Source of the DNA: an archaeon
GTDB lineage: Archaea; SpSt-1190; DYHY01
Assembly (NCBI GenBank): GCA_043803745.1
Contig: JAZDJS010000021.1
Location: forward strand, 16,738-80,737
Direction: 5' to 3'
DNA: 64,000 nt
In this document: piece after piece, positions 3,166-62,144 of the stretch
How the letters are laid out: each line of letters begins with the position of its first letter
Numbering within the stretch: position 1 is the first letter of the stretch
Translations under genes and position numbers: made by a program
The notes under the pieces: generated by a model
Told to the model about the DNA's origin: nothing
Databases searched by the model: none
The model's input: the letters and a program-made list of their open reading frames with translations, nothing else

Positions 3166-3365
3166 TTTTCTTTTGCGCCCGTCAACGGAGCTTTTCTTTT
3201 GCGAAAAGAAAAGATGGGTTGGGAGTGGACTGGACGGGAGTCCCCTACCGGACTTCGGCTAGCGCCTCAGGAACCCGTGACAGTGGGGTTTTCTTTTGCG
3301 CCCGTCAACGGAGCTTTTCTTTTGCGAAAAGAAAAGATGGGTTGGGAGTGGACTGGACGGGAGTC
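3166..3365. repeat. Tandem direct repeat with a 123-bp period. Copies are about 77 nt and about 74 nt are identical. Each copy ends with the last 17 nt of tRNA-Ala (tggactggacgggagtc) preceded by a conserved palindromic trailer.
   Basis: Copy 1 is at about 3166-3242 and copy 2 at 3287-3365. Copy 2 overlaps the 3-prime end of the tRNA-Ala gene. The 44-nt spacer at 3243-3286 contains gaacccgtgac, which is a T-arm fragment. Confidence 0.9.
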
Positions 3366-3420
3366 GAACCCGTGACCTCAGCGTTGCGAACGCCGCATTC
3401 TACCACTGAACTACCAGCCC
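3349..3420 (-). tRNA. tRNA-Ala (anticodon CGC)
   Basis: The reverse complement folds as GGGCTGG-TA-GTTC..GAAT-GCGGCG TTCGCAA CGCTGA-GGTC-ACGGG TTCGACT CCCGT-CCAGTCC-A. The G3:U70 pair is the alanine identity element. The anticodon loop is TTCGCAA. CCA is not encoded. Confidence 0.85.
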
Positions 3421-3606
3421 GTGCGTCTATCCAAGTTCAGTGGCGGTATATTAGCATTCCTGAGCCATCAGGCAAAGTCCGTGAGCGCACGGATACCACT
3501 GAACTACCCGCCCTTTTTTTACTGAACCCGAGCCATCGCAGGCGAGGTCCGCGCTTGATGCACGGATACCGGCCCTTGAACTTTTGGAAACTCTTCCGGG
3601 TTTTTA
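3421..3606 (-). other. Two tandem degenerate units of about 90 nt upstream of tRNA-Ala. They contain tRNA-like 5-prime fragments (GGGCGGGTAGTTCAGTGGTA on the minus strand), hairpins (TCCGTGCGCTCACGGA; CCTGATGGCTCAGG) and A/T runs. This is a possible structured ncRNA or pseudo-tRNA.
   Basis: The minus-strand read gives GGGCCGGTATCCGTGCATCAAGCGCGGACCTCGCCTGCGATGGCTCGGG.. and GGGCGGGTAGTTCAGTGGTATCCGTGCGCTCACGGACTTTGCCTGATGGCTCAGG.. The units are homologous to each other. The + strand copies end in T7 and T5 runs. Confidence 0.3.
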
Positions 3607-5275: not shown

Positions 5276-5333
5276 TTAGGTCGTGGTCCTTTTTCGTTTT
5301 CCCGTGAAAGGTCCTCTGCAGAGGAGGTTTCAG

Positions 5334-5420: not shown

Positions 5421-5573
5421 AGGTTCTAAGGCTTGATGGTAGTTTATAAAATGAAGTTTTTCTTACGCCCGTCAACGGATTTTCTTTTTGCCAAAAAGAA
5501 AATGGGTTGGATGTTGACCGGATTTCGCTCTTATCTCGGCGTGCGTTAAGGCAAGGAGGGAGTTTATAAAATG
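5396..5573. repeat. Direct repeat with a 117-bp period. It duplicates the first roughly 28 nt of tRNA-Ser plus its TATA promoter (unit A 5396-5453, unit B 5513-5573, about 85% identical). The palindromic trailer element lies between the units.
   Basis: gttgaccggatttcgctatctcggcaggttctaaggcttgatggtagtttataaaatg versus gttgaccggatttcgctcttatctcggcgtgcgttaaggcaaggagggagtttataaaatg. Confidence 0.85.
5443..5450 (-). promoter_or_regulatory. Archaeal TATA box (TTTATAAA) for tRNA-Ser
   Basis: Palindromic TATA centred about 26 nt upstream of the tRNA 5-prime end. Confidence 0.6.
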
Positions 5574-31756: not shown

Positions 31757-32155
31757 GTGAGTTTTTCCAAACTCGATTATGAGAAAACTTCCGCCAAGGG
31801 GGTCCTGATTGCAGCCGTTGAAACTGGCCGGGCAAAATCTGTCTCGGTGATAAAATTCCTCCCCGGCTCAAGCTTTCCAAGCCATTCCCACGGGAAAGCA
31901 ACGGAGCGTTATTTCGCGGTTTCAGGCAAGGGCATCGTTTCCGTTGGGAAGCTGAAACGGGTTCTGGACAAGGGGGATTCAATCGAGATTGGGCGAGGAA
32001 GGGTTCATTCCGTTTCCAATCCGTTCAAGAGGCAGTTCGTAATGGTCGAGATTTCAATTCCCGGATTTGACGAAAAAGACGTTCTGTTTGGACCAAAAGG
32101 CCGGAAGATTCAAGCGGAAAGGATTAAATACCGGAAGAGCCGGCCTTTCCACTAA
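31757..32155 (+). CDS. Cupin-domain protein
   Basis: FPSHSHGKATERYFAVSGKG...GDSIEIGRGRVHSV. Confidence 0.55.
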   Translation: MSFSKLDYEKTSAKGVLIAAVETGRAKSVSVIKFLPGSSFPSHSHGKATERYFAVSGKGIVSVGKLKRVLDKGDSIEIGRGRVHSVSNPFKRQFVMVEISIPGFDEKDVLFGPKGRKIQAERIKYRKSRPFH

Positions 32156-32156
32156 T

Positions 32157-33314
32157 ATGAGGGGCAGCCTTTTTGCGGATTCAACTGGATTCTCCGAGAA
32201 AAACCTTTTCAGGGACGAGGGGATCCTTTACTCGGATTTCCTTCCGGACAAGCTGCCGCACAGGGAAGGCCATGCGCGCTTCCTTGCTGATTGCCTGAGG
32301 CCAATCACCGGCGGGAAGAGCCCGGAGAACGTTTTCATCTGGGGTCCCGCAGGGGTCGGGAAAACCTCCGTTGCGAAGTTCGTCCTCCGGGAGATGAAGG
32401 AGCACACCGAAATCCCTGTTGTCTACATAAACTGCTGGCAGAACGACACGAGGCACGCGGTCCTGACGACAATCGCATATGCGCTTGGGAGCTTTGCGCC
32501 CCGGAGGGGGACTGCGACCGATGAAATCTTCGAAAAGGCCTGCGAGGGGATGAAAAGGCGCGGGGGGAAGGGGCTTGTGATCGTGCTTGACGAGATTGAC
32601 AAGCTCCTTGCGAACGACGGGGGGCGGCTTCTCTACGACCTTGCAAGGGGACCGGTCTTTACCGGAAAGACGGGAATCGTCATGATTTCTAACGACGAAT
32701 ATGCCCTCCGGAAACTCGACGACCGGACGAGGAGCAGCCTCTCCTACCAAGAGTCCTCATATCCCGCATATTCCTTCGAGGAGCTGAAAGGGATTTTCTC
32801 GGAAAGGATCGGGGCTGCGTTCGTCGAGGGTTCCGTGAAAGCGGGAGTGAACTCCGCGGTTGCGAGGATTGTCGCGGATTCCGGCGGGGACGTAAGGCTC
32901 GGGCTCGACTGCCTCCTCAAGGCGGGACGGCTTGCAGAATCCGACGGGAAGGATTTTTCGGTCGAGCACGTCCAGAAGATGATTGGGAAGATCCAGAACA
33001 GCAAGACGAAGGCGATAATCACGGGGCTCGAGAGAAACCTCCTTGGAATCGTCAGGATTCTCGCTGCGACCGGGATAAGGGAGAAAACAACCGGGGAGCT
33101 TCTTGCCGATTATTCGCGGGAAATGGGGGAAACGAACGAGCGGACCTTCAGGAACTACCTGACTGAGCTCGAGACGAAGGGAGTGATAACCTCGGTGATG
33201 AGCGGCAAGGGCCAACGGGGGAAAACAAGGATAATCACGCTGAAGAACTCCGAGATGGTAAGGAGAATCCTTCAATCAGCTAATGAGGATGGCAAAGGAG
33301 GAAAGGAAAAATAA
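32157..33314 (+). CDS. cdc6: Orc1/Cdc6 replication initiator (AAA+ plus C-terminal winged helix)
   Basis: HREGHARFLADCL...IWGPAGVGKTSVAKFV (Walker A), VIVLDEIDKL (Walker B). Start at the ATG at 32157. Confidence 0.9.
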   Translation: MRGSLFADSTGFSEKNLFRDEGILYSDFLPDKLPHREGHARFLADCLRPITGGKSPENVFIWGPAGVGKTSVAKFVLREMKEHTEIPVVYINCWQNDTRHAVLTTIAYALGSFAPRRGTATDEIFEKACEGMKRRGGKGLVIVLDEIDKLLANDGGRLLYDLARGPVFTGKTGIVMISNDEYALRKLDDRTRSSLSYQESSYPAYSFEELKGIFSERIGAAFVEGSVKAGVNSAVARIVADSGGDVRLGLDCLLKAGRLAESDGKDFSVEHVQKMIGKIQNSKTKAIITGLERNLLGIVRILAATGIREKTTGELLADYSREMGETNERTFRNYLTELETKGVITSVMSGKGQRGKTRIITLKNSEMVRRILQSANEDGKGGKEK

Positions 33315-35125: not shown

Positions 35126-35521
35126 ATGAGAAACGGAATGTTTTTTGTTGCCTCAGGGATACTGATTTTCGCGGGGATACTCCTCGCTGGGTGTGTTTCA
35201 TCAGCGCAGGGACTGGGGGGGAGCCCGGGGGGGAGCCCAGGGGGGAGCCTTAGCACGCCTCCGACAACCGCCCCCGCTCCGGAAGAGAAAACCTTCACTC
35301 TTTCTGAGATTGCCGGATATTCGACAAAGGAAAACTGCCTGATTGCGATAAACGGGAGCGTCTACAACATTACGGGGTATTTCGGCAAGCATCCTGCGGG
35401 GGACCGGACTTTGCTTTCCGGCTGCGGGAAGGATGCGACGGGAATCTTCAGCGAGAAGCATTCCCAGACGGCGTGGCAGCTTCTGCCCTCGTTCTATGCC
35501 GGAAAACTGGCCGGGCAATAA
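35126..35521 (+). CDS. Cytochrome b5-like heme/steroid-binding domain lipoprotein
   Basis: Lipobox-like LAGC. GGSPGGSPGGS linker. FTLSEIAGYSTKENCLIAINGSVYNITGYFGKHPAG is a b5-like motif. Confidence 0.5.
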   Translation: MRNGMFFVASGILIFAGILLAGCVSSAQGLGGSPGGSPGGSLSTPPTTAPAPEEKTFTLSEIAGYSTKENCLIAINGSVYNITGYFGKHPAGDRTLLSGCGKDATGIFSEKHSQTAWQLLPSFYAGKLAGQ

Positions 35522-35851: not shown

Positions 35852-36029
35852 CCGTGCTCCCGACGGTTGAGTCATCTTCAGAGGACGAAATCTCGGGACG
35901 CGAGCGCGTTAGACCCGCCAGACGAAAAAGTGCGAGTGCTCCCGACGGTTGAGTCATCTTCAGAGGACGAAATCTCGGGACGCGAGCGCGTTAGACCCGC
36001 CAGACGAAAAAGTGCGAGTGCTCCCGACG
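35852..36029. repeat. Perfect tandem repeat of 2 x 82 bp plus a 13-nt third start. Each unit begins with the last 13 nt of tRNA-Glu (gtgctcccgacgg) followed by 69 nt of trailer.
   Basis: Units at 35852-35933 and 35934-36015 are identical. The third unit is the tRNA 3-prime end itself. Confidence 0.9.
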
Positions 36030-36091
36030 GGATTTGAACCCGTGTCTCGGGCTCGAGAAGCCCAGATCCTTGGCCGAGCTAGACGACAGGA
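36017..36091 (-). tRNA. tRNA-Glu (anticodon CTC)
   Basis: The reverse complement is GCTCCTG-TCGTCTAGCTCGGCCAAGGATC-TGGGC TTCTCGA GCCCG-AGAC-ACGGG TTCAAAT CCCGT-CGGGAGC-A. Confidence 0.85.
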
Positions 36092-36187
36092 GCTTGAGAA
36101 TCGGGTCTTTCTCCCCGTTTTAAACGTTTTCCATCGAGTTTCGCCCAACCCAAAAATCTTTTTAACCTCTGTTCTTCCGGTTAGGCC

Positions 36188-36305
36188 GGGTCCATAGCTC
36201 AGCCCGGTAGAGCGGCAGTCTTATATGACTGTGTTCTATACACAAAGGATAGACTAGGTCTGAGTCAGCTGTTGGTCATGGGTTCGAATCCCATTGGGCC
36301 CACCA
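36188..36305 (+). tRNA. Intron-containing tRNA (118 nt including the encoded CCA). The tentative mature anticodon loop is CTTATAA, giving anticodon UAU (tRNA-Ile2 type). The isotype is uncertain.
   Basis: GGGTCCA-TA-GCTC AGCCCGGTA GAGC-G-GCAGT CTTATA | 41-nt intron (contains the hairpin TGTGTTCTATACACA) | A-GCTGT-TGGTC-ATGGG TTCGAAT CCCAT-TGGGCCC-A-CCA. The acceptor has a G4:U pair. A GCCCC-TTCA-GGGGC hairpin follows immediately. Confidence 0.65.
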
Positions 36306-36365
36306 GCCCCTTCAGGGGCTGAAGAAATTCCCACAGCCAGCATTCCCTTTGCGCTCTGAGGGGCT

Positions 36366-36410
36366 CATTGGGCCCACCAGAGCCCGTTTTCTTTTCCGAA
36401 AGAAAAAGCC
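36366..36410 (+). repeat. Copy of the tRNA 3-prime end (cattgggcccacca) 74 bp downstream of the intron-containing tRNA, followed by the palindromic trailer (gcccgttttcttttccgaaagaaaaag)
   Basis: 14-nt exact copy at 36366-36379. The trailer at 36381-36410 is similar to the elements at 3176-3222 and 5463-5510. Confidence 0.7.
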
Positions 36411-36426
36411 TTCGGGGAAAAAGAAA

Positions 36427-39411: not shown

Positions 39412-42400
39412 TCTTTTTCCCCTGCAGGTTCTCTTGAGGACTCCGACCCTTCCCGGGAGAAACCGATTTCCGCGGCCCCGAGCCCGAGGTCGCCGAGGGA
39501 AACGCTGTCGCAGAAAACTTTCGAGCCACTCATTATCCTCACAAGCTCCATTTCCTGCGCCCCGACCTTCTCTTTCATAGCGGGGAGGAAGGGCGTTATC
39601 AGCTGCTCGGCCTTTTCGTCAAGACCGAGCTCAAGGACTATTTTCTGGGAAACCGTGAAACCGGAATCCTTCCGCATTGCCTGAATCTTGCGCGTGATTT
39701 CCCGGGAAGCTGCCTCGCCAAGCAGCGCGTCGTCAAGCTTCTTGTCAACGAAAACGACGAAGCCCGCTTCCTCGCCTCTCGCGTAATCGCCTGCGGGCTC
39801 CTCCGGGGAAACCTCGATTTTCTTGCAGTTCGCAAGGCGGGAGATAATTTCCCCCGCGAGGGAAATTGCCCTGGAAATGCCCTCTTCCTTGGAAACCACG
39901 ATTGCCTTCGCAACTGGATATCTGAGTTTTATTCCGGCAGCGTTCCGCGCAGCCATCAGAGCCTCAATTACTTTCTGGGCTGTGAAGACGGCCTCCTCAA
40001 GGGCTGAGTCGATTTTCCCTTCCTCGCATTCCGGCCAGGAACAGAGATGAATCGACTCTGAAACGGAGGAATCAAAGCTCTTCTCAAAGTTCTGGTAGAT
40101 TTCCTCGGAAATCATTGGGACGATTGGCGCCGAAAGCCGCAGTAGCTTTGAAAGAACCTCGTAAAGGGTCTGGTATGCGGCAAGCTTGTCCTCCCCCTGC
40201 GCGCCGGGCCAAGTCCTCTCGCGGATCAGCTTGATGTATGTCCGAGAAAGGTCGTTCACGAAAAACTTTTGGAGTGTCTCGGAAGTCTCCTCAATCTTGT
40301 AGTTGTCGAATGCTTCCGTAAGCCCTCGCACAAGGCTGTTGAGCCTTGAGAGAATCCATTTGTCCTCGATTTTCTTCTCGACCTGAGCCCCGCCGGGCCT
40401 GAATCCGTCAACGGACATGTAGCCGTGGGCGAAAGAATAGCTGTTGTAGAGAATCCGGAGATTGTTGAAAGCGTCCCTGACATATCTTTCGGAATATGAC
40501 ATGTCTTCCCCCGCCTTTGCGGAGGAGATGAAGAACATCCGGAGGCTGTCCGCCCCGTATTTCGGAAGGACTTCCTCGGGGGAAACGAAATTGCCAAGGG
40601 ATTTCGAGAATTTCCGCCCAATCTCGTCGTTAACGAATCCGTGCATGTAAACCGCCTTGTAGGGCGCTCGCCCGGTTGCAAGGACGCCGAGGCACATCAG
40701 GCTGTTGAACCAGCCGCGTATCTGGTCCTTGCCCTCGATTATGAAGTCGACAGGATAGGAGTCCGAAAGAACGTTCGGGTTTTCCGCCGGGAAGCGCTGG
40801 GCCGCCCAGGAGGCGGAACCGGCTTCTCCCCAGACATCGAAAATATCTGGCACGCGCGTCATGGCGTCCCGCTTGCATTTCTTGCACGCGAACTTTATCT
40901 CGTCAATCCAGGGCCTGTGCAAATCCTTCGGCTGGGTCGGGAGCTCTTTCGCGGAACCGACAACCTCTATTTCCCCGCAGTATTCGCATTTCCATATTGG
41001 GAGGGGAACGCCCCAGTATCTCTGGCGGGAGATGCACCAGTCCTGGAGGTTATCGAGCCAGGAATCGAACCAGGAAGAACCCGCCCAGTCCGGGACCCAC
41101 TTGACCTGCTTGTTCGCCTCGCGCATCTTCTCCTTGAGGCTTGCGGTTGAGAAGAACCACTGAGTCGTCGCAAGGAATATCAGGGGCGTCTTGCATCTCC
41201 AGCAAATCGGGTATTCGTGCGTGAATTTCTCGGTTGAGAAAAGCAGGCCTTTCTTCTCAAGATCCTCGATTATTTTCGGGTCGGCGTCCCTCTTGGCAAT
41301 GAATCCGTGATATTTGCCGGCCTCCTCGGTGAATGCTCCGGAAAGCTTGATCGGGCAGAACATGTCAAGGCCCTCCTTCTTCCCAACCTCAAAATCCTCG
41401 GGACCGGTTCCCGGAGCCAGGTGGACGCATCCGGTTCCGGCATCAAGATGGACATATTCCTTCGAGAGGACGACTGAATGGTTCTTATTGTCCTTCTCAG
41501 CAAACTTCCTCTGGGCGGGGATCTCGTCAATCAGGGGGTGGACGTACTTCAGACCGGCAAGCTCGGAGCCGGGAACCTCCTTCACGATTTTGTATCCGCG
41601 CCCGGCAAGTATCTTTTCCGCAAGCTCCTTTGCAAGTATCAGGGTCTCCCTCGGGGTCTCCCTCGGGGTCTCCCCGGGGAGCTCCCCGCCGCACTCGGCA
41701 TAGACATACTGGAAATCCGGGTTTACCATCACCCCCATGTTTGTCGGGAGCGTCCAAGGGGTTGTCGTCCATATCAGTATGAATGTTTTCTCGGCTCCGG
41801 CGACCGGGAACTTCACGAATATCGAGTTCTCAGTTATGTTCGCGTATTCCTGCTCGTGCTTGGCAAGGGCGGTTTCGCAGCGGGGGCATGCCGTAAGGAC
41901 CTTCGGCCCGTTGACAAGGTAGTTGCTGAGATATGCCTGCTTTATTCCCCACCAGACACCCTCGATGTAATAGTTCTCGATTGTCAGGTAGGGATTCTCC
42001 CAATCCATCCAGACCCCGAGGCGGATGAACTGGCCGTTCATTATCGCCAGGTTCTTCTTCGCGAAATTCCGGCAGTAGTTCACGAAATTCCCGACGCCGT
42101 ATTCCTCAATCTGCTTTTTGGATTTTATCCCGATTTCCTTCTCGACCTTGAGCTCGACCGGGAGCCCGTGCATGTCGTATCCCGGGGTGTCATTTACCGA
42201 AAAGCCCCGCATTGCCTTGTAGCGGAGGACCGAATCCTTCATTATCTTGTTCCAGGCGGTTCCGAGGTGTATTGCGCCGGTCGGATAGGGGGGTCCGTCA
42301 ATGAACGTGAACCTAGGCTTGCCGGACTGACCGGCCTTCCATTTTGAATAAATCGACTTCTCTTTCCAGAACGAAAGAATCCGCTCTTCTGTTGGAACTA

Positions 42401-56138: not shown

Positions 56139-56798
56139 ATGAAACCTGGACAAGACCGGCTTTCATCAAACCATCCCCGCTTGGCGCGGGAGATTCTCAA
56201 GCTGGCCGACTATGGAGAGCGGCGCGGCTTTGAAGTGATTTTCAATGGAAGCTGCGCCGCATATGCGCTCGGAATACTTGACAGGCCTCCCGGGGATGTC
56301 GATGCTCTGGTCGGACCGGGCGGGATAGACGAATATGCTTCTCCAATCTTTCGCAGGCCGAAGAAACGCAGGGAATGGCAGCTCCCGGATAGCAGTCAGC
56401 GAGGACTCTTGGCGGTTTTCAAGAATCCGTTGACCGGAGTCAAGATTGACTTGAACGAGATTTATCTTCGTAAGGAAGGGGTTGAGGTTCCCCAATATGA
56501 TGAAATGAAGGCGGCTTGGGTTGAAATCGGCGGCAGGCAGGTAAGAGTGATGCCGCCTGAGGAAATGGTTTATAGGAAAATCGTTGCTCTTGGAAATAAA
56601 AGACGGGCTGCGAACGGACTAGTTGAACGGGATTATGCCGACGCCCTCGAAATGTATGGGAAGGTATTGGCGGCAGGAAATTGGGATTCGGAATATTTCC
56701 TTGCAAGGGCGGCTCGGCTCGGGGACAACCTTCCAAAAGTTGCGGAAAGGTTTCCAAAGGCAACTCCTTTGATGAAGGAGCTAGGGCTTTTGGCATGA
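56139..56798 (+). CDS. Nucleotidyltransferase-fold protein (putative)
   Basis: FNGSCAAYALGILDRPPGDVDALV has GS followed by DxD. Confidence 0.35.
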   Translation: MKPGQDRLSSNHPRLAREILKLADYGERRGFEVIFNGSCAAYALGILDRPPGDVDALVGPGGIDEYASPIFRRPKKRREWQLPDSSQRGLLAVFKNPLTGVKIDLNEIYLRKEGVEVPQYDEMKAAWVEIGGRQVRVMPPEEMVYRKIVALGNKRRAANGLVERDYADALEMYGKVLAAGNWDSEYFLARAARLGDNLPKVAERFPKATPLMKELGLLA

Positions 56799-56834
56799 AA
56801 ACGGGTTTAAAGTGAGGTTTAAGCGGACACGCAA

Positions 56835-57773
56835 ATGGCTGGGAAAGCGAAAAGGAAGCAGAAGCACGCATATGTTGTCGTGAACCTAGAGGGGGAGAAT
56901 CTTGGCCCGGACTGGGAAAACTATTCCCGGGCGCTTGGCTTGGAAATCAGGGAAATTGACGGGAAAACCGAGGAAATGCCGAAAGTTGGCAAGGGTGAAG
57001 TTGCCTTCCTAATGGGCGGGAACCAGACTGCGACAACCGCGGAAATTGCGGCAAGCTGTCCATATCTGCAGGGGCAAGTCGACCTTGTGAATAGAATAAT
57101 TGACGGACAGAAGGGGCTTGCTGTCGGGGTCAATCTCGGCGCTCAGATAATCGCGCATGCTGTCGAGCCTGATTGCACGAAACCTTCCGGAATAATCCGG
57201 ATCGGAGAGAGCGCAGTTCATATAGACCCTGGCAACGAGCCAAGCCGGCAGGCTTTCTCGGGCGATGTTCCGTTCCAGGCAGTCAATTTCAACAGCTACG
57301 GAATCTACTTCAGCGAGCCGGAGCTTGATGTAACTATGCTTGCAACTTCCGGCAACTACAAGCAGTTTCCCTTCGAAGCGTTCTATGTCTTTGACGAAAC
57401 GAGCGTGCCGCGCGCTTTCGGGACTGCCTACCACGGCGAGCCCGCCGAATATTTTGCCAGGATTTTCAAGAGCCTGGAATACCGGGATTTCCTCGGGACT
57501 GGAGAGGATGTTTTCACTTTCCTAAGAAAAAAGGCGGCGGAGGGACTTGTCTATTCCGGGGGAAAACCGCTTGCGCCGAATTCCCCTGTCCTGACAAGGA
57601 GGGGTTTTGCCAAACTCTCGCAGGAGCATGAGCTTGAGCGAAGAATTGCCGGGATACATTCCCTCCACAACACGGTTGTCTTGTCCGGGACTGCCGAAAA
57701 GGCGCGCGCCCAAAGCGCGCTTGTTGAAACCCTTGCGGAAGCCGGCAGGGGTTATCTGGGGAAGCTGAAATAA
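56835..57773 (+). CDS. Hypothetical protein, GATase1-like fold with Cys replaced (GVNLGAQII)
   Basis: 312 aa. Confidence 0.3.
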   Translation: MAGKAKRKQKHAYVVVNLEGENLGPDWENYSRALGLEIREIDGKTEEMPKVGKGEVAFLMGGNQTATTAEIAASCPYLQGQVDLVNRIIDGQKGLAVGVNLGAQIIAHAVEPDCTKPSGIIRIGESAVHIDPGNEPSRQAFSGDVPFQAVNFNSYGIYFSEPELDVTMLATSGNYKQFPFEAFYVFDETSVPRAFGTAYHGEPAEYFARIFKSLEYRDFLGTGEDVFTFLRKKAAEGLVYSGGKPLAPNSPVLTRRGFAKLSQEHELERRIAGIHSLHNTVVLSGTAEKARAQSALVETLAEAGRGYLGKLK

Positions 57774-57924: not shown

Positions 57925-58002
57925 GGACCCGTAGCTTAGCTTGGATAGAGCGAGTGGCTTCGAACCACTAGGTCGGGGGTCCAAATCCCTCCGGGTCCGC
58001 CA
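57925..58002 (+). tRNA. tRNA-Arg (anticodon TCG), CCA encoded
   Basis: GGACCCG-TA-GCTT AGCTTGGATA GAGC-G-AGTGG CTTCGAA CCACT-AGGTC-GGGGG TCCAAAT CCCTC-CGGGTCC-G-CCA. Confidence 0.85.
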
Positions 58003-58130
58003 AGCGTCCCCTCAGATCTCGCCCAGGTGAAAGCGCGCATAATAGGCTTGACCTCCGGGTCCGCCAAGCGTCCCCTCAGATCTCGCCCAGGTGAAAGCGC
58101 GCATAATAGGCTTGACCTCCGGGTCCGCCA
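57990..58130. repeat. Tandem repeat of 64 bp x 2.2. Each unit starts with the last 13 nt of tRNA-Arg(TCG) including CCA (tccgggtccgcca).
   Basis: Units at 57990-58053 and 58054-58117 are identical. A third start at 58118-58130 then diverges. Confidence 0.9.
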
Positions 58131-58193
58131 GAACCCATCCTCCGCGGAGGATCCGTTCGCGGGCGTCAAAGAAAGGTTGTGAAAAACCATAAA

Positions 58194-59634: not shown

Positions 59635-60276
59635 ATGAAGGAACTCGAGAAGGAGGTTGCGTCTGGTGGGGGACCCGAGGGGGGACCCGAGGGGGGACCC
59701 GGTGGGGAACCTTGCGAGTGCACTTGCAAGGGCAATAAGGAGCCCGAGGAATCCGGAGCCAAAGTTACGCTTCAGTCGAAAGAAGAGGTTGGCAAGGAAC
59801 TTCGGTTGCTTCGGCTTGCAGCGGATTTCGAGAACTACAAGAAGCGGACCGCGAAGGAATTCGCAGACCAGAGGAATTCCGGCAAGAAGGACCTGCTTGA
59901 AAAGCTAATCTCCCTTTCGGACACCTTCGAGCTTGCGCTCCATTCAGTGAAGAACGCAAGCCCCGAGGTTCTGAAGGGTTTCCTAATGATACAGAACCAG
60001 CTCAAAGCAATACTCTCCGGGGAAGGCGCCGAACCTTTCGGAACTTCTGGCGAGCATTTCGACCCGTTCAGGCACGAGGCTGTCGAATTCGTCGCTTCCG
60101 CGGGGGGCGCGGAAGAGGGAACTGTCTCGGAGGTAATCCAGAAGGGATACCTTTTCAAGGGGAACCTGCTCAGGCCCTGTGCGGTCAAGGTATTCAAGAA
60201 CGCTACTCATCAGACAGGAGATGTCAAAGAAGATGCGGCACCCACGTCTGAACCTGAAATGAAACAAATGGAGTGA
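59635..60276 (+). CDS. grpE: GrpE nucleotide exchange factor
   Basis: [17 protein letters not shown]. It has an unusual N-terminal [13 protein letters not shown] + CECTCKG segment. Confidence 0.8.
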
Positions 60277-62144
60277 AGGAAAACATGACAAAAATAATCG
60301 GAATTGATCTGGGAACATCGAACTCGGCTGCCGCTGTTGTCGAAGGCGGGCGGCCGGTGATAATCCCTTCGGCTGAAGGCTCTACCGCCGCGGGGAAGAC
60401 CGTCCCCTCGGTCGTCGCCTTTGCAAAGGACGGGACGCTTCTTGTCGGCGAGCCGGCTCGGAGGCAGGCTGCGGTCAATCCGGAAAGAACTGTCCTTGCA
60501 GTGAAGAGAAAGATGGGTCGAGTTGAGAAAATAGCCGTCGGGGGAAAGGAATATTCCCCGCAGGAGATTTCCGCCTTCCTCCTCCAGAAGATGAAGAAGG
60601 ATGCTGAAGCGTACCTTGGCGGACCCGTGACAAAGGCGGTGATAACCGTTCCGGCATATTTCGACGACAACCAGAGGCAGGCAACGAAGGATGCGGGGAC
60701 GATTGCGGGCCTGGAAGTGGTGAGAATAGTCAACGAACCGACTGCGGCAGCCCTTGCATTCGGTCTTGACAAATCCGGAAAGGATTCCAAGATAATGGTT
60801 TTCGACCTCGGGGGCGGAACGCTTGACGTCACCATAATGGAGATGGGCGGGGGCGTCTTCGAAGTCAAATCGACCAGCGGGGACACGCAGCTCGGCGGGA
60901 CAGACATGGACCGGGTGATTGTCGACTACATCGTTTCCGAGTTCAAGGCTGCCGAGGGAATTGATATTTCCAAGGACAGGATGGCGAGCCAAAGGATACG
61001 GGAGGCTGCTGAAAAGGCTAAAATCGAGCTTTCCACGACAATGTCAACCGACTTGAACATTCCGTTCGTCTCGGCAACTGCCGAGGGACCGAAACATCTC
61101 GCAATGACTATCACGCGCGCGAAACTCGAGGAACTCGTCAACCCGATTGTCGAAAGGTGCCGCAAGCCAGTCAAACAGGCACTCTCGGATGCGGGGCTCC
61201 AGCCAAGCGAAATCGACAAGGTGCTCCTTGTTGGCGGACCCACGAGGATGCCGATTGTCCAGAAGCTTGTCGAGGAGCTTGTCGGGAAGAAAATAGAAAG
61301 GGGAGTCGACCCGATGGAATGCGTTGCGCTCGGAGCGGCAATCCAGGGCGCGATTCTTTCCGGGGAAGTGAAGGATGTCGTTCTCCTCGACGTTACGCCG
61401 CTCTCGCTCGGAATCGAAACCCTTGGCGGGGTTACTACGCGCCTGATTGACAGGAACACCGCAATCCCGGTGAAGAAGAGCCAGACCTTCTCGACAGCGG
61501 CAGACATGCAGACGAGCGTTGACATACACGTCCTCCAGGGGGAGAGGCCGATGGCGGCAGATAACGTCGAGCTCGGGAACTTTTCGCTGATAGGGATTCC
61601 GCCGGCGCCGAGGGGGATACCTAAGATAGAGGTTTCCTTCGACATTGACGCAAGCGGGATAATGCATGTCTCGGCAAAGGATCTCGGGACAGGAAGGGAG
61701 CAGAAAATCCAGATTACCGCGCCGCACAAGCTTTCCAAGGACGAGATTGAAAAGAAGGTCAAGGATGCCGAGGCTTTCGCCGATGCCGACAAGAAGCGCA
61801 TTGAGGAAGTCGAGCTTTACAACGAAGCTGATGCGTTCATCTATACCGCTGAAAAGACGCTTGCGGATGTCGGGGACAAGCTTTCCGAAGACAAGAAAAC
61901 CGAAGTCAAGAAATGGATTGGAGAGCTAAAGGAAGAGGTCCAGAAGAAGGATTCCGTGAAAGTGAAGGAGAAGCTTGACGCGCTCAGGAAGGCGGTCTCA
62001 GCCGCAAGCGAAGCGCTTTACAAGGACAAGGACGGAGCGCCGCCCGGAGGAGAGGGGTTCACGAAGGAGCCCTCTGGCGGCGGACCTGAAAACGAGGAAA
62101 CGTTCGACGCCGAATTCTCCAAGAAGAAAGAGGATGGAAAGTAA
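60273..62144 (+). CDS. dnaK: Hsp70 chaperone DnaK
   Basis: [42 protein letters not shown]-less C-terminus. Confidence 0.95.

Follow-up and report, generated by a model that had tools for sequence, protein, structure and literature searches.

Short-range copies of tRNA 3′ ends, an apparently undescribed feature of a small group of Micrarchaeota-like archaea, and their probable tandem amplification at tRNA-Arg(TCG)

The window, a 64,000-nucleotide stretch of DNA, is ordinary chromosome coding for Orc1/Cdc6, FEN1, SSB, DnaG, IleRS, GrpE-DnaK, arginase and Nudix proteins, and is marked as archaeal by its intron-bearing tRNAs and TTTATAAA-type promoters; the closest match of its IleRS, at 63%, is in a Candidatus Micrarchaeum MAG. 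At its tRNA-Arg(TCG) gene, the 3′ end of the gene recurs downstream in a tandem array, which is followed directly by a flank module. The parts of this locus are as follows (window positions).

57925-58002, plus strand: tRNA-Arg(TCG), intact, with CCA encoded at 58000-58002 (ARAGORN; Rfam tRNA, 62.5 bits)
57988-58002, plus strand: core copy 1, CCTCCGGGTCCGCCA, tRNA positions 62-76
58003-58051, plus strand: spacer X copy 1, 49 nt, with the box GCGTCCCCTCAGATCTCGCC at 58004-58023
58052-58066, plus strand: core copy 2
58067-58115, plus strand: spacer X copy 2, identical to copy 1
58116-58130, plus strand: core copy 3, the distal "echo", with the native flank module directly after it
58131-58176, plus strand: flank module, consisting of G AACCCAT, the hairpin CCTCCGCGGAGG, A TCCGTTCGCGGGCG and TCAAAGAAAGG

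Tandem Repeats Finder reports a repeat at 57988-58130 with a period of 64, 2.2 copies and 100% matches (score 286), and a repeat search of the window returns the 64-nt copies 57988-58051 and 58052-58115 as identical. Each 64-bp unit comprises the 15-nt core CCTCCGGGTCCGCCA and the 49-nt spacer X; the core is present three times, and past the third the sequence departs into GAACCCATCC... Core copy 1 is the last 15 nt of the tRNA gene itself and, with tRNA positions numbered backwards from the sequence's 3′ end, covers the 3′ strand of the T-stem (62-65), the 3′ strand of the acceptor stem (66-72), the discriminator G73 and CCA. A first-pass annotation had described a repeat seeded in the 3′ end of this tRNA, encoded CCA included, with two identical 64-bp units and a third that diverges after the tRNA core. 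The seeding is borne out by both repeat searches, ARAGORN and Rfam, and the arrangement of the units by their coordinates; the third unit does keep a tRNA core, of 15 nt rather than the 13 nt then given, as the CC of positions 62-63 is also repeated. The 2.2 × 64-bp repeat of tRNA-Arg(TCG) is thereby confirmed as real. By our estimate, chance alone would produce an exact recurrence of at least 12 nt of a tRNA tail inside 400 nt about 6e-4 times per tRNA. The last bases of the spacer, GGCTTGA, are similar to the 5′ half of a T-loop. The T-loop of the tRNA itself (57978-57984) reads TCCAAAT, with C at position 55, where U is near-universal; the orthologous gene of a relative, 96% identical to it, has TTCAAAT.

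The identical runs measure 143 nt at Arg-TCG, 177 nt at a second array in the window, at tRNA-Glu(CTC), and 153 nt at the tRNA-Arg(CCT) of a relative. Given the lengths that the periods allow (15+64n for Arg-TCG and 13+82n for Glu) and a typical largest assembler k-mer of 127-141, each array has the smallest length that its period permits above that k, and the copy number may accordingly be underestimated: the figure of 2.2 copies is probably a minimum imposed by the assembler on arrays that may have been collapsed. Single-echo loci, at less than 100 nt, are fully resolved. The same coincidence of lengths, in a short-read MAG, is what could be said for an array created in assembly, an explanation to which we give very little credence: a 15-nt core cannot make a de Bruijn loop at k of about 127-141, the same design is found in assemblies of independent origin (JGI, ENA and Logan), among them one with an array of more than three copies and a diverged last unit, and two related contigs from two samples (L081 and L085) are identical across the locus. 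Assembly is thus an unlikely source of the structure.

Other tRNA genes of the window carry comparable copies of their own 3′ ends.

35854-36030, minus strand: tRNA-Glu(CTC) array, with the core CCGTCGGGAGCAC three times and a 69-nt X twice, period 82 (gene at 36018-36093)
36188-36426, plus strand: tRNA-Ile(TAT) with an intron, encoded CCA, an echo and the module (gene at 36188-36305)
3166-3420, minus strand: tRNA-Ala(CGC), "architecture 2" (gene at 3348-3420)

The tRNA-Glu(CTC) array (2.2 × 82 bp with 100% identity in Tandem Repeats Finder) begins in the 3′ end of its gene, its core corresponding to positions 62-74. The tRNA-Ile(TAT) locus is in a single-echo (1.2-copy) state: a 59-nt spacer leads to an echo of the last 15 nt of the gene, CATTGGGCCCACCAG, at 36366-36380, and the module follows at 36381-36426. 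This gene, with its 41-nt intron, was missed by ARAGORN in default mode and found by Rfam and by ARAGORN in intron mode. The latter mode also returned a "tRNA-Lys" with a 355-nt intron in the GrpE/DnaK region (60014-60463), which is almost certainly a false positive. At tRNA-Ala(CGC), the order on the tRNA strand is the tRNA, a module (3289-3343), the 5′ half of a T-stem, GTCACGGGTTC (3271-3281), a 28-nt insert I (3243-3270), positions 57-73 (3226-3242) and a second module (3166-3220), and a 77-nt exact downstream repeat comprises the last 17 nt of the gene and 60 nt of its flank. In this second architecture, the T-arm and the 3′ part of the acceptor stem recur beyond the tRNA and module as a distal copy, which extends from position 47-51 or so up to 76 and is split at 56/57, within the T-loop, by an insert I of 28-44 nt. 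Loci of this type lie at 3166-3288 of the window (minus strand) and, in related contigs, at about 250-390 of L086, about 15250-15440 of L092 and 3256-3350 of L095. The tRNA-Ala(CGC) insert is homologous to those of the relatives, and all belong to a conserved family, YTGAGGCGC..GCCGARGTCCGGTAGGR, found across tRNA-Ala, Gly, Ile and Glu of different genomes. The I inserts could be T-loop introns; no bulge-helix-bulge was evident at them in MFE folds (z about 0).

Thus, the 3′ end is copied downstream of the gene at four of the six real tRNAs of the window (Arg-TCG, Glu, Ile and Ala). All five of the largest direct repeats in the window are at tRNA genes, and nine other intergenic gaps contain no large direct repeats. 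Duplications of 5′ parts are also seen: the promoter, leader and first ~27 nt of tRNA-Ser(TGA) recur 120 nt upstream, with a module after the repeat (5513-5573, minus strand), a 41-nt leader with 12 nt of tRNA-Ser(CGA) is repeated upstream of the gene in the relatives L082 and L086, and the promoter and 5′ part of a tRNA-Leu upstream of the gene in L083. An orphan 20-nt tRNA 5′ fragment, GGGCGGGTAGTTCAGTGGTA, at 3494-3513 (within 3460-3580, minus strand) is one base off the 5′ end of tRNA-Ala, and upstream of tRNA-Ala there are two related GGTATCCGTGC... units with an acceptor strand that mismatches tRNA-Ala. Smaller 12-bp repeats in about three perfect or near-perfect copies, GGGGGGGAGCCC (35215-35249), GGGTCTCCCTCG (41642-41679) and GGGGGACCCGAG (59668-59701), are present as well, at least two of the three inside coding regions (IleRS and the N-terminus of GrpE). 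The 306-nt intergenic gap before the Orc1/Cdc6 gene (gene at 32067-33314; region 31761-33314) is a candidate replication origin region, and the order of Orc1, a small ORF and a CitMHS transporter is kept in all relatives. Immediately abutting the 3′ end of tRNA-Arg(CCG) are two genes (56139-57773) that code for a nucleotidyltransferase with a weak likeness to AbiEii and a 312-aa orphan that has no homologue besides itself among 5.8 billion proteins; a syntenic relative lacks both and has SurE and an echo cassette in their place. No copy of the tRNA-Arg(CCG) 3′ end bounding this window-specific 1.6-kb segment was found within 5.8 kb. Exact-protein look-ups of the window genes left two without a record.

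The flank module helps to define what has been added at these loci. This two-hairpin element follows a scheme of AACCCAT, a hairpin of variable sequence, a segment variously written TCCGTTNNCGGGCG or TCCGTTGACGGGCG, and an A-rich run. In the window genome it is normally located 1-5 nt after a tRNA 3′ end, and copies are found at 58131-58176, 36381-36426, 3289-3343, 3166-3220, 5457-5508 and 5288-5330, including directly after tRNA-Ala, tRNA-Ser and a tRNA-Ser 5′ fragment. At Arg-TCG and Ile the module adjoins the last core instead of the tRNA; accordingly, the (X+core)n segment constitutes an insertion exactly at the tRNA 3′ end. The module is also present in the related contigs L081-L087 and L092; the Arg-TCG copy is 85.5% identical to that of the relative, and copies are 89-96% identical between genomes with saturated neutral sites; hairpin 1 retains its pairing by compensatory changes (six of the nine predicted pairs). 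The module has no match in Rfam; termination, processing and protein binding are candidate roles.

Used as a pattern for a metagenome scan, the module returned six real loci, and at all six it follows a tRNA. Recurrence of the tRNA 3′ region was seen for eight of the ten tRNAs on these loci. Synteny links L081 and L085 to the window between about 48 and 64 kb (HerA 88%, DnaK 81-85%, arginase 69-70%, Nudix 66% and GrpE 48% protein identity), and this relative, at about 70% protein identity, carries the orthologous tRNA-Arg(TCG), which ends in ...CCGCT with no CCA encoded and is followed by a 62-nt spacer, the echo CCTCCGGGTCCGCT and the module. The relatives' Arg-CCG, Leu-TAG and Tyr-GTA have single echoes, their Gly-GCC has the Ala-type architecture, and the Arg-CCT of L086 has an array of more than three copies (period 55, 3.2 copies) in which the inner units are identical and the most distal one is degenerate. 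Five more contigs with orthologous tRNA-Glu/tRNA-Ile pairs were recovered through homologues of the transporter. In the closest of these by transporter identity, L090 (CitMHS 73%; IleRS 78%), tRNA-Glu has a core-X-core arrangement (1.2 copies) with an X about 73% identical to that of the window; the Glu echo of L095 is a decayed version, L092 has a version of the echo with a T-loop insert, and the GC-rich Ca. Micrarchaeum MAG contig L091 has echoes at neither of its two tRNAs. The single-echo state of Arg-TCG in L081/L085 and of Glu in L090 indicates that the window arrays are amplifications, and the tRNA-Ile flank, which has a different echo architecture in each of the five relatives, indicates that the events are recurrent. 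Homologues of the PP-loop gene were only about 50% identical and not syntenic, and the exact 3′ half of tRNA-Arg found no match in GTDB species representatives.

In all, 13 of 17 tRNAs in the related metagenomic contigs have an echo, and 17 of the 23 tRNA genes examined in the clade carry a copy of their own 3′ end, as against 1 of 40 tRNAs in 80 unrelated archaeal loci. That sole control echo, at the tRNA-Gly(GCC) of a Thermoplasmata MAG (19 nt from the T-loop to the 3′ end, 69 nt downstream; L037, 18721-18885), shows that isolated short-range echoes exist outside the clade. Echo cassettes are a habit of most tRNA genes in a small group of Micrarchaeota-like archaea, and their boundaries are fixed with respect to the tRNA. 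Of the eight cases of "architecture 1" (Arg-TCG, Glu and Ile of the window and the relatives' Arg-TCG, Arg-CCG, Arg-CCT, Leu and Tyr), six have an echo that begins at position 62 and two have one that begins at 63 or 64; the echoes end at 74-77, that is, 1-4 nt beyond the discriminator, and are 13-15 nt in length.

This register bears on an account by slippage or unequal crossing-over in plain intergenic DNA, in which it would be by coincidence that the unit begins inside the tRNA. The perfect head-to-tail units with a partial terminal unit speak for such an account, and slippage is very probably the source of the extra units. Borg elements reportedly carry perfect intergenic tandem repeats formed by slippage, with the same head-to-tail units and partial terminal copy; the long repeats of the window, unlike these, are confined to tRNA genes and phased on tRNA structure. 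A slippage-only origin leaves unexplained both the pre-existing 15-nt direct repeat and the position-62 boundary shared by at least eight tRNAs, and it is further opposed by the restriction of the largest direct repeats to tRNA genes. Hence, the boundary statistics contradict slippage as a complete explanation, which we consider quite improbable, and it survives only as a second stage.

The copies themselves reveal their template. The first-pass annotation, struck by the inclusion of CCA in the repeated core, had suggested a mature, CCA-bearing tRNA end as the template, and had proposed a check on whether other tRNAs of the genome encode CCA and whether their repeats include it. We ran this comparison and found that the copies carry CCA only where the gene encodes it. 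Thus, the Arg-TCG and Ile-TAT genes encode CCA and their copies contain it, tRNA-Glu encodes C74 only and its three copies end in ...GCAC followed by TCG or GGG, never CCA, the tRNA-Ala copy extends 60 nt into the genomic flank, and in the relative's tRNA-Arg(TCG) gene and echo both end in GCT and both lack CCA. The core tails match inside each genome but not from one genome to the next (GCCA in the window, GCT in the relative); they track the local gene, which fits duplication of a local target, and as the copies follow each genome's own gene down to its non-tRNA bases, the duplication occurred at the DNA level. The copies were made from the gene, not from a mature tRNA. Reverse transcription of, or templating on, a mature CCA-bearing 3′ end is barely credible: the Arg-TCG and Ile cores do finish in CCA, but at both loci it is gene-encoded, the Glu, Ala and relative's Arg-TCG copies speak against such a template, and no reverse transcriptase was detected among the 50 window ORFs.

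The spacers are a weakly conserved family. The Arg-TCG X and its orthologous spacer share an 18/20-nt block, the box GCGTCCCCTCAGATCTCGCC, with a score that none of 5000 shuffles reached, and this box is more loosely common to spacers at other tRNAs. For eight X units from two genomes, the summed pairwise score has a z of 5.7, or 4.0 without the orthologous pair, as against 1.3 in a reverse-complement control. The units share a box, [GC]AGA[TC][CT]TC..CC, and a terminal G.CTCRR like the first half of a T-loop, and these boxes recur in one orientation at different tRNAs and genomes. The three X units of the window and its tRNA-Ala spacer, taken alone, have no significant pairwise similarity, and in an nhmmer search with a short X-box profile nothing rose above noise except the copies on which the profile had been trained. 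Between these genomes, four-fold degenerate sites have reached saturation (32-44% identity), and the conservation of spacer blocks in spite of this points either to constraint or to an origin much younger than the divergence of the hosts. Old neutral scars are excluded, as the Glu X (~73%) and the Arg 18/20 block persist despite saturation. Readings of X as a C/D-box sRNA, a primer-binding site or a minihelix, made by eye, were dropped since their motifs were inconsistent across loci.

We tentatively favor, with somewhat less than even confidence, an array formed by DNA-level tandem amplification of an older cassette with the order tRNA, X, a copy of positions 62-76, and module. In a first stage, the origin of which we infer, a T-arm-registered process would have placed X between the tRNA and its flank with duplication of 13-15 bp from position 62 to just beyond the discriminator; as the duplicated segment regenerates the 3′ end, the tRNA stays intact. 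The geometry of this stage would be that of an integrase-type att duplication or of a casposase-type target-site duplication (TSD) of 13-15 bp, and the process would have struck most tRNA genes of the lineage, differently in different relatives. In a second stage, the 15-nt direct repeats, 64 bp apart, may have misaligned in replication or recombination to multiply core+X, yielding at least two identical units at Arg-TCG and Glu and at least three at the relative's Arg-CCT, where identical inner units and a decayed outer one are typical of slippage-grown arrays. Insertion is supported by the position of X+core between an intact tRNA and a conserved module, by boundaries in a fixed tRNA register, by the presence of related sequences next to the distal copy, by the recurrent and lineage-specific nature of the events, and by the relatedness of the X units, as would be expected of the arms of an element.

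Several observations weigh against insertion. The spacers are only 42-74 nt long, an inserter would have to recognize eight or more tRNA specificities, and none of about 20 loci holds a complete element. The cassettes must either be recent in every lineage or be kept by selection. T-loop-targeting integrases usually generate an identity block that starts inside the loop; in "architecture 1" identity begins at position 62, past the T-loop, and is preceded by no more than a degenerate box that resembles a T-loop, while the 56/57 breakpoint of "architecture 2" does lie inside the T-loop. No integrase, transposase, Cas1 or reverse transcriptase was detected among 50 ORFs of the window or 20 ORFs beside scarred tRNAs of relatives, nor do these enzymes appear in the precomputed Pfam lists of nine further loci. 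Perfect terminal inverted repeats (TIRs) measure 0-3 nt in the X of Arg, Glu and Ile and in the tRNA-Ala spacer, on the strength of which X was rejected as a mobile element with inverted ends. The attP-like Arg and Glu junctions (X-end, core, X-start) have no exact match in IMG/VR; sampling of DPANN mobile elements is poor. Scans of viral contigs for the module and for the I insert likewise found nothing.

The closest precedents, by analogy, would be integrase att duplications and especially casposon TSDs. Partial duplication of tRNA genes by integrating elements is common in archaea (PMC9897764, PMC3293823). As with integrases of the SSV, pNOB8 and pTN3 types and tycheposon-like islands, an intact tRNA here occupies one end and a directly repeated copy of its 3′ segment the opposite one, identity reaches the tRNA 3′ end so that the gene is regenerated, and fragments are serially layered, with duplications of 5′ fragments too (PMC9897764, PMC3293823). 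Those systems, in contrast, involve elements of 9-23 kb (down to ~1.8 kb) with a recombinase and repeats of ~44 bp, whereas the present spacers measure 42-74 nt and the repeats 13-15 nt, the DNA examined yielded no recombinase, 17 of 23 clade tRNA genes are affected and the spacers are conserved across saturated divergence. Casposons generate 14-15-bp TSDs at tRNA 3′ ends with the T-psi-C segment as the recognition "leader", and their tandem insertions share a TSD (PMC5137440, PMC4779613). The duplication described here is of the same length (plus or minus 1-2), lies beside the segment of the T-psi-C loop, has the same tandem form with a shared repeat and is, like that of casposons, formally analogous to a leader-repeat junction (PMC5137440, PMC4779613); it differs in the lack of TIRs and of Cas1 or PolB in the window or the relatives' loci, in lying wholly inside the tRNA (62-76) where the casposon TSD overlaps it by 5 bp, and in an insert of tens of bases instead of kilobases. 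With CRISPR arrays it shares a short direct repeat that alternates with spacers and is anchored at a "leader", here the tRNA. Unlike CRISPR, the repeats are 13-15 nt (vs 24-47), the spacers are identical within an array and related across loci, each array's repeat is its own tRNA end, and cas genes are absent, with no CRISPR family at the Rfam gathering score in the window. Because the defining features of both att and casposon families fail, we would say that the feature works like an insertion of either kind and do not assign it as a member.

A serious rival to insertion, though in our judgment unlikely to be the answer, is that the echo cassette is a selectively maintained functional element of tRNA loci, which could be a protein-binding site, a recombination site or a termination or processing signal, with the tandem copies as a by-product of slippage. 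It would account for the presence of the cassette at most tRNA genes of compact genomes with a uniform geometry, for the conservation of spacer blocks and echoes despite saturated neutral sites, for boxes that keep one orientation across tRNAs and genomes, for the lack of mobile-element genes in the DNA examined, and for the conserved, structured module that adjoins it. Against it, echoes are decayed or absent at the Glu of L095, the Ile of L094, both tRNAs of L091 and the last Arg-CCT unit, and the architecture at one tRNA varies between relatives. The tRNA with its array does not fold better than shuffles (z=-0.17), duplexes between leader and X+echo are no better than shuffles at eight of nine loci, a negative result for a processing stem of leader and trailer, and an RNA mimic of the tRNA end is opposed by identity that reaches bases outside the mature tRNA, which differ between genomes; no concrete function is on offer.

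The usual interpretation of a partial tRNA duplication is that of a rare scar left by an integrated element of kilobase size. The short-range 3′-end echoes described here apparently form a lineage-wide and undescribed class, of which the Arg-TCG array is one amplified member, and automated annotation and short-read assembly will misjudge such loci. If an unknown site-specific inserter is responsible, it would represent a new DPANN mobile or recombination system that targets tRNA genes, with a geometry like that of casposon or CRISPR integration; if the cassette is functional, it would be a new cis-element of archaeal tRNA loci. The fuller form of the latter proposal, in which the echo unit, with its boxes, its copy of the T-arm and acceptor 3′ strand and its structured module, constitutes a previously undescribed class of selectively maintained cis-elements, we regard as rather improbable. 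Were it true, the unit might be a landing site used repeatedly by a host or episomal Cas1-like enzyme or tyrosine recombinase, which would make it a tRNA-anchored, leader-repeat-like system able to grow into arrays, or else a signal in tRNA gene expression. The echo loci also represent intermediates relevant to the question of how tRNA genes of archaea acquire insertions in the T-arm and come to be fragmented, and the echo unit could be raw material for T-arm introns and fragmented tRNA genes.
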